A DNA stretch of 55,343 nt, from NCBI GenBank assembly GCA_964415445.1, contig CAYQAE010000003.1:6192-61534 (forward strand), written 5' to 3'. The notes beneath the pieces are model-generated. The model ran no database searches. It worked only from the letters and a program-made list of their open reading frames with translations, and was not told the DNA's origin. The stretch's first letter is position 1, and the number at the start of each line of letters is the position of its first letter. Shown here piece after piece: positions 7,785 through 7,856 of the stretch. The DNA comes from an uncultured archaeon. Lineage in GTDB: Archaea > CAYQAE01. The position numbers and the translations under genes were made by a program.

Positions 7785-7856
7785 ATCACGTTCATCTCTC
7801 ATGATGGTAGATATTAGGTAATGAAATTACCTTAGAGCTTAGTAGCTTTTTTTGAA
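7785..7856 (+). promoter_or_regulatory. Diverged copy of the conserved leader element (ATCACGTTCAT box, two hairpins, oligo-T)
   Basis: atcacgttcat, then hairpin aggtaat/attacct (7816-7832), then hairpin agct/agct (7836-7847), then T run 7848-7853, then gaata. Same order as copies A and B, with different stem sequences. Confidence 0.55.

Follow-up and report, generated by a model that had tools for sequence, protein, structure and literature searches.

A putative structured 5' leader module before three orphan genes of an uncultured archaeon

What could a hairpin-rich leader element do that recurs before three unrelated genes of one archaeon? The question is raised by contig CAYQAE010000003.1 of an uncultured archaeon, of which a stretch of 55,343 nucleotides (the window, meaning the whole stretch of DNA that was analysed) carries three copies of the element, here called A, B and C. 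An earlier note on this DNA had described C as a diverged third copy that keeps two hairpins by compensatory changes, the second of them followed by oligo-T in the manner of an attenuator. The explanation that we favour, with a probability of roughly 0.45, is a promoter-plus-leader cassette in a genomic island of this AT-rich archaeon, where it precedes three orphan genes that are monocistronic and unrelated. The conserved leader module probably acts at the RNA level and probably represents a new sequence family within the structured cis-regulatory 5' leaders; it looks like a lineage-restricted, regulatory leader and not like a proven attenuator.

The three copies share an invariant box, ATCACGTTCAT, which occurs as an exact 11-mer at three sites in the window, all on the + strand (copy C, 7785–7795; A, 11041–11051; B, 17224–17234); allowing one mismatch revealed no further site within the window. 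Each copy lies on the + strand, 135–151 nucleotides (nt) 5' of a + strand open reading frame (ORF) and in the same orientation as that frame. Reading all three sequences bore out the earlier note's statement that A, B and C have their sub-elements in the same order. Judged by sequence, copy C (7785–7871) is a diverged homologue of A (11041–11136) and B (17224–17319). The cores of A and B are 97% identical, and because these two are so nearly alike, the comparison of C with A/B is effectively the only independent one.

When each copy was folded alone with RNAfold, an identical three-hairpin minimum-energy structure was obtained. Both hairpins of the earlier note are present, but its count was wrong, as a third hairpin (H3) follows directly after the H2 region. 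In copy C (+ strand) the minimum-energy fold consists of H1 (AGGUAAU-GAA-AUUACCU, 7 base pairs (bp), 7816–7832), H2 (AGAGCU-UAGU-AGCUUU, 6 bp, 7834–7849) and H3 (UGAAUAC-AUUA-GUAUUCA, 7 bp, 7853–7870). In A, also on the + strand, the corresponding hairpins lie at 11070–11087, 11090–11111 and 11115–11135, and in B, whose + strand coordinates are those of A plus 6183, at 17253–17270, 17273–17294 and 17298–17318. The stems of H1 differ between the copies and still pair, as had been claimed (AGGTCAT/GTGACCT in A, AGGTCAT/ATGACCT in B, AGGTAAT/ATTACCT in C). For H2, the core given before was correct (GGTT/AACC in A and B, AGCT/AGCT in C), but the stem is longer than was thought: in all three copies it is extended by an A-U and a G.U pair, which the AG of the 'TTAG' linker forms with the two U at the start of the T run. 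H3 reads TGAATTT-ATAAGAG-AAATTCA in A and B and TGAATAC-ATTA-GTATTCA in C. The lengths of the T run were also as noted earlier, with T6 in A (11110–11115) and B (17293–17298) and T7 in C (7847–7853, + strand); the difference arises from the last core pair of H2 in C. In each copy the last T of the run is the first U of H3. Since bases of the T run go into both H2 and H3, just UUU is left single-stranded per copy (in C, only 7850–7852 are predicted to be unpaired). The linkers are accordingly short, U or UU between H1 and H2 and UUU between H2 and H3.

Evidence for the hairpins comes from the way in which C differs from A and B. A covariance model was trained on A and B only, with the three hairpins as structure, and both strands were scanned with filters off. 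Copy C was the sole other significant match (37.3 bits, E = 9e-5), the next match having an E value of 0.31. The same A+B alignment without structure gave C 16.5 bits, so that about 21 bits, over half of the signal of C, come from base pairing. In the model-guided alignment of 21 pairs, standard pairs were found in 62 of the 62 cells of the three copies. When C is compared with A/B, both members are replaced in five pairs, of which one lies in H1 (C-G to A-U), two in H2 and two in H3, and none is broken; the compensatory changes proposed in the earlier note are thus real, as is the change from U.G to U-A between A and B (pair 39-44 of the alignment). Sliding the 3' partners by 1–3 columns as a control reduced pairing to 33–55%, with no double changes. 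In a neutral simulation, in which 10 random substitutions were placed in the 42 stem nt of A (200,000 trials), all pairs stayed intact at a frequency of 1e-5. The loops, by comparison, differ in sequence and in length (3 nt in C vs. 4 in A/B, 4 vs. 8 and 4 vs. 7 nt for H1, H2 and H3, respectively), so that indels are carried by the loops and none by the stems.

Folding energy alone cannot decide whether these palindromes matter as RNA or as DNA, because the core stems are made up of Watson-Crick pairs and the fold of the reverse strand is nearly as good as that of the + strand. All six non-Watson-Crick cells are G.U on the + strand and A.C on the reverse complement, giving 62/62 standard pairs on the + strand vs. 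56/62 on the reverse complement. A dimeric operator would be expected to show a conserved half-site at fixed spacing. The three hairpin palindromes do not: between C and A/B their half-site spacing shifts by 1, 4 and 3 bp, and the inner half-site bases are the very ones that co-vary. The hairpin palindromes are therefore unlikely to be double-stranded DNA operators, as such spacing changes suit loops and not dimeric DNA-binding proteins. Taken together, the G.U cells, the spacing changes and the co-varying inner bases are suggestive of H1–H3 acting as + strand RNA.

The conserved unit extends beyond the hairpins. A and B are homologous over about 470 nt (~10730–11197 vs. 16915–17380), being 97% identical from ATAATCACG to the start codon and, by eye, about two-thirds identical farther upstream (10730–11040 and 16915–17223, ~300 nt 5' of the box). 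Copy C aligns with A and B along the entire leader up to '...TAAAAAAA..ATG'. Its ATG at 7936 aligns with internal ATGs of A (11192, 11195) and B (17375) and not with the first in-frame ATGs of these genes (11174, 17357), from which we conclude that the shared unit is promoter plus 5' untranslated region (UTR). The true starts are probably 11192 or 11195 in A (MMKIVF..., a signal-peptide-like N-terminus) and 17375 in B (MNRNRR...), and if A and B seem to have their first six codons in common, this is probably because the starts were placed 18 nt too far upstream. Both of these genes have their first in-frame ATG within the shared leader, at a position where C lacks one.

In a search for a further helix, the full leaders were folded from the putative transcription start to +15. 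A segment beginning 4 nt after H3 was predicted to pair with the start-codon region in all three copies (H4). In C, the anti-start strand GACAUGAUU (7875–7883, + strand) is predicted to pair with AAUCAUGUU (7932–7940, + strand), which contains the AUG at 7936, over 9 bp and with a probability of 0.99; a Shine-Dalgarno-like GAGG (7920–7923) lies within the loop that H4 encloses in this copy. In A, UUUUCAUCA (11140–11148, + strand) would pair with UGAUGAAAA (11193–11201) over 9 bp with a probability of 0.88, UGAUGAAAA spanning the AUG at 11195 and the UG of the AUG at 11192. In B, an 8-bp helix is predicted between UUCAUCAA (17325–17332, + strand) and UUGAUGAA (17372–17379, with the AUG at 17375), with an upstream pairing probability of 0.99. 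In silico, the AUG is hence paired with a CAU of an upstream leader segment over 8–9 bp in all three copies, at predicted probabilities of 0.88–0.99. The sequence of H4 is wholly different in C compared with A/B, while its position is the same. As a test against chance, the 16 nt after H3 were swapped for random intergenic 16-mers, and helices at least as long that covered the AUG were counted; the position-specific P values were 0.004 for C, 0.024 for A and 0.038 for B.

On the DNA side, a TATA-like octamer, TTTATATA, lies at 7778–7785 (+ strand) in copy C. It is a perfect match, abuts the box and may serve as the promoter; at this position A and B have weaker octamers that are AT-only. In archaea, transcription usually starts ~26 nt from the TATA element. 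With this spacing, transcription of C would start near A7809, at the conserved T-A of 'TAGAT', a sequence found at ~7809 in C and ~11065 in A and replaced by TATAT (~17248) in B. The palindrome that follows the box had been given as CTCAT(AT)GAT; read directly from the + strand, it is in fact TCATGA in C (7799–7804) and TCATATGA in A (11056–11063) and B (17239–17246). If transcription starts at TAGAT, the box would occupy ~-24 to -14, the TCAT(AT)GA palindrome ~-10 to -2, and H1 would begin at +6 to +8. As archaeal repressors usually sit at such positions, we read box and palindrome as a shared operator.

The favoured explanation joins these parts. The DNA part would consist of the TATA-like octamer, the invariant box ATCACGTTCAT and the TCAT(AT)GA palindrome as an operator common to the three promoters. 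The RNA part would be a 5' UTR of ~127 nt that opens with the tandem hairpins H1–H3 and in which, 4 nt past H3, the CAU-containing anti-start segment would pair with the start-codon region ~50 nt downstream. If H4 forms in vivo it would mask the AUG, and control would be post-transcriptional, on translation or stability. Because H4 covers the AUG, translation would then depend on the opening of this helix, with temperature, a protein or another RNA as conceivable triggers. The 5'-proximal hairpin array may serve as a stability or recognition platform, and the U tract may contribute partial termination.

Several observations weigh against this explanation. The folding z-scores of H1–H3 are modest (-1.0 to -2.6). 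There are three copies only, from two independent lineages on one contig, and a proper covariation statistic is not possible because no homologue beyond A, B and C was found. H4 is weak and AU-rich (-7 to -8 kcal/mol), and helices of 8 bp or more on the AUG were also predicted for 6 of 35 other genes of the window by naive folding of this AT-rich DNA. The start codons of A and B used for H4 (11195, 17375) were picked post hoc, replacing the first in-frame ATG. H1–H4 were retained for C and A when the RNA was begun farther upstream. In some sequence contexts, especially in B, H3 or H4 is lost from the minimum-energy fold, and H1, H2 or H4 can be lost when 60 nt of coding sequence are added. Finally, the perfect TATA-like octamer next to the box is present in C only, and a distal TATA, TTTATATATCTGAAAA (10779 in A, 16963 in B), 262 nt upstream, is perfectly conserved in A and B. 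The transcription start is uncertain, since the proximal TATA is perfect only in C and the distal one is better conserved. A similar distal TATA, GTTTATATAT, lies ~100 nt upstream in C at 7683, followed by the G-rich GGGTGTGGGGG (7683–7725). The hairpins would be inside the RNA whichever promoter is used, as both TATA elements lie upstream of them. The distal TATA together with the G-rich block might provide a second, more distant promoter or belong to a small RNA of its own. In A and B the upstream region contains a conserved G-rich block, GGGATGyAGGGGAGA(C)GGTCAAAACAAA...TCCTCTTTTAGA, which can form a hairpin followed by T4.

The earlier note had favoured an attenuator, in which H2 and the U6–7 tract would stop a regulated fraction of transcripts ~40–45 nt after the start and read-through would yield the full mRNA. 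We regard this as unlikely, although part of the evidence is in its favour: a hairpin abutting a U6–7 tract is kept in all three copies, within a long 5' leader, on the strand of the gene and between the putative promoter and the start codon, and A and B have a second U5 or U6 tract 24 nt on (11139–11143; 17321–17326). In Methanococcus maripaludis, a terminator consists of one or, better, several U4+ tracts within ~30 nt upstream of the 3' end, with a median termination efficacy of 43% for one U4 tract and 52–55% for two or more (PMC8716108). In vitro, termination by archaeal RNA polymerase occurs at T5–6 (PMC2253867). On these two sources, partial termination at a single U6–7 tract is physically plausible. 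Against regulated termination, only UUU is unpaired between H2 and H3, two U of the tract being in the base of H2 and one in H3; H2 has two G-C pairs and was not flagged by a terminator scan; C lacks the second U tract; and beyond the supposed stop follow H3 and the anti-start segment, which are equally conserved. Besides H1–H4, no mutually exclusive antiterminator was seen in the minimum-energy or centroid structures, and there is no conserved leader peptide, the 21-codon ORF of A and B being absent from C. The sense strand of coding sequence shows no shortage of T runs of six or more (63 were counted vs. 50.5 ± 6.3 expected from codon shuffling). Single T6 runs are common inside genes, whereas the T runs at gene ends, the evident terminators, are mostly tandem T7–T10 clusters, presumably the normal terminator form of this organism; T6+ runs directly after + strand stop codons were found at 8818–8864, 9754–9812, 12262–12283, 20595–20611, 21567–21583 and 49334–49340. 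We therefore rank attenuation below translational or stability control, given the weak H2, the few free U, the lack of an alternative fold and the fact that T6 is not avoided; it is weakened, yet compatible with either of them. A wider proposal, in which one cis-element of an undescribed archaeal riboregulatory leader family would set both premature termination (through the U tract and aCPSF1/FttA) and access to the start codon, and would have spread as a portable cassette onto unrelated, horizontally acquired orphan genes, seems rather improbable to us. By eye, the U tract could also pair with the A tract just 5' of the AUG; A and U runs are everywhere in this genome.

Three further explanations were considered. 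If the palindromes were double-stranded DNA operators, one or more shared factors would co-regulate the three promoters and no RNA structure would be needed. The 11-mer and the TCAT(AT)GA palindrome would indeed stand at archaeal repressor positions with a start at TAGAT, the outer stems keep their sequence (AGGT/ACCT and TGAAT/ATTCA), and folding is almost as good on the reverse strand. For the hairpins, we hold this to be very unlikely: any half-site would be altered by the two-sided changes at the inner stem positions, the spacing and the G.U cells described above speak for + strand RNA, and it would be unusual to find three adjacent operators at ~+8 to +62. The box and the TCAT(AT)GA palindrome by themselves may still be an operator, as the favoured explanation already assumes. 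We also give little credence to an independent small non-coding RNA gene of ~45–80 nt (H1–H2 or H1–H3, ending at the U tract) that merely happens to lie upstream of the genes. The compact hairpins would suit such a gene, as would a TATA-like element of its own and the U tracts that follow H2 and, in A and B, H3 as well, but C has no U tract after H3, the homology of C and the 97% identity of A and B run unbroken to the start codon, the orientation always matches that of the downstream gene, and the predicted AUG pairing ties the element to the mRNA. Scarcely more probable is a duplicated promoter cassette with no function beyond that of a promoter, the hairpins and the AUG pairing being products of AT-richness and shared descent. 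In its support, A and B are clearly a duplication of ~470 nt, the folding z-scores are modest, AUG-masking helices are predicted for 17% of the other genes, and there is a single independent comparison. What it leaves unexplained are the five double-sided changes without a broken pair (P ~ 1e-5 under neutral substitution), the 21 bits that pairing adds to the model score of C, the placing of indels in loops and not in stems, and a core that is far better conserved between A and B than its upstream flank.

Searches for known families and for homologues did not extend the set. Rfam 15 gave no match at gathering thresholds over the whole window and none at E ≤ 5 over the elements in 7400–17400, and ARAGORN detected no tRNA or tmRNA. 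A scan of a genome collection with the loose pattern ATCACGTTCATN{0,3}TCTCAT returned at least 119 bacterial chance matches, and none was real among the matches listed, which does not establish absence from the genomes. A metagenome scan with a 21-base pattern yielded two chance matches only, four scans of viral contigs nothing or chance matches, and blastn against phages and plasmids nothing relevant. Other classes of element were considered and rejected. A riboswitch-like aptamer does not fit, as the loops vary in length and sequence between C and A/B and only the U-rich linkers are conserved. A C/D-box RNA, K-turn or tRNA-like cloverleaf was looked for by eye, but a D box is missing and B lacks the closing stem. 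An attC-like site of an integron would be one long imperfect hairpin, whereas here there are three short ones, and no integrase domain was found among the ORFs scanned. In A and B, a 21-codon ORF (MIDQVIVVTFRVWLVEPFLNL in A) at 11060–11125 and 17243–17308, respectively, overlaps H1–H3; as a leader peptide it was rejected, having only 6 codons in C and showing four differences between A and B that are all non-synonymous.

The elements lie within a stretch of ~6.5–21.5 kb whose genes have no recognisable family, and each precedes a + strand gene that is monocistronic and has a cluster of long T runs at its end. The gene after C (7936–8814, + strand) encodes an orphan protein of 292 amino acids (aa) and is followed by the T-run cluster at 8818–8864. 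The gene after A (11174–12256, + strand) encodes a secreted or anchored protein of 360 aa with no family match, and the gene after B (17357–20590, + strand) a polytopic membrane orphan protein of 1077 aa; the proteins downstream of A and B are unrelated to each other. Among 5.8 billion clustered proteins, the 292-aa and the 1077-aa proteins matched only themselves, and for the former a full HMMER pass over 1.84 billion representatives likewise gave no relative. The AlphaFold model of this 292-aa protein was unusable (predicted local distance difference test score, pLDDT, of 37). Exact-protein look-ups, as a route to orthologues, found no contig, and PADLOC and PHROGs searches of the island proteins returned coiled-coil noise only.

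The window itself is archaeal, with an L21e, RpoF (Rpb4-like), DUF655 and KsgA cluster at 2020–6309, and has a GC content of ~23–35%. The lineage is poorly sampled, as the closest DUF655 proteins share 74% and 70% identity with that of the window and all others 58% or less. On the 4-kb contigs of the two nearest relatives (L133 and L134), the island and the ATCACGTTCAT box are absent from the short span covered. Both of these contigs carry a Fae-Hps fusion gene along with the L21e-RpoF-DUF655 cluster. In L134 the fusion gene lies upstream of L21e, at the position that the island takes in the window, and L133 ends 116 nt upstream of L21e. These contigs agree with the view of the island as an insertion that only this genome has. 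The A and B genes are richer in GC (0.34–0.35; 10001–12000 and 18001–20000) than their neighbours (0.23–0.30), and this excess, together with the orphan status of the genes, suggests a foreign origin of the island.

Elsewhere in the window, a 3746-aa ORF on the - strand (21687–32927) with internal repeats of ~600–660 and 1250 nt probably encodes a giant surface protein. Two adjacent paralogues (33179–35299 and 35301–37502) contain, besides a LanC-like domain, many calcium-binding repeats of the bacterial thrombospondin type-3 (TSP3) kind, a pairing that is unusual for an archaeon. The window is also rich in modules of toxin-antitoxin or defence type (365–1918, 4178–4881, 6502–7389 and 37579–38252), among them an AbiEii toxin with an upstream partner ORF, a HEPN and nucleotidyltransferase pair and a MazE-PIN pair. 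A winged helix-turn-helix (wHTH)-Mrr-like nuclease gene (6502–7389) is divergent from element C.

How does the leader compare with known systems? With the bacterial intrinsic-terminator attenuators (trp and pyr leaders, T-box and riboswitch platforms) it shares a hairpin abutting oligo-U in a long same-strand 5' leader. The differences are that our analysis found neither a competing antiterminator fold nor a leader peptide or recognisable sensor, that the stem, with two G-C pairs, is weak, and that the next hairpin takes up part of the U tract. In addition, the polymerase of the archaeal host would be sensitive to U tracts and aCPSF1/FttA and not to hairpins. To our knowledge, only a small number of cis-acting regulatory RNA leaders have been described for archaea, and an attenuator based on a hairpin is not yet established in them. 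In RNA thermometers and start-site-masking leaders (fourU, ROSE, cspA-type), a short AU-rich helix sequesters the initiation region. H4 is likewise predicted to be short and AU-rich (-7 to -8 kcal/mol), with UUUU in the masking strand of A, but it would pair the start codon and not the Shine-Dalgarno sequence, is long-range (~50 nt) and not a local hairpin, and matches no family model. The leaders of Escherichia coli ompA and Bacillus subtilis aprE carry 5'-terminal stabiliser hairpins, and the archaeal decay machinery includes RNase J and aCPSF2. A stable hairpin a few nt from the putative 5' end recalls these stabilisers, with three hairpins here and not one.

Compared with the U-tract/aCPSF1 terminators of M. 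maripaludis (PMC8716108), the leader likewise has a U4+ run, with two tracts within ~30 nt in A and B, but the tract is single in C and mostly base-paired, and the gene-end terminators of this organism are T7–T10 clusters after stop codons. The closest described situation appears, on comparison, to be that of Methanolobus psychrophilus, a methanogen with long 5' UTRs, predicted stem-loops masking the ribosome-binding site (RBS) and alternative start sites (PMC5378194). These also are archaeal leaders of more than 100 nt with a predicted stem over the translation start, and the two TATA-like elements found here could likewise give alternative leaders. In the present case the AUG itself would be masked, by a CAU-containing segment and by prediction only; a conserved three-hairpin array precedes it, the same leader stands on three unrelated genes, and there is no sequence relationship.

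The value of the finding is limited for now by a single contig of an uncultured lineage, orphan genes and two independent sequence lineages. If the favoured explanation is true, this archaeon would possess a conserved structured leader with a start-codon-masking helix, in a cassette common to unrelated genes. Such a leader would offer a mutable test object for post-transcriptional control in archaea, and for regulated premature termination at U tracts.

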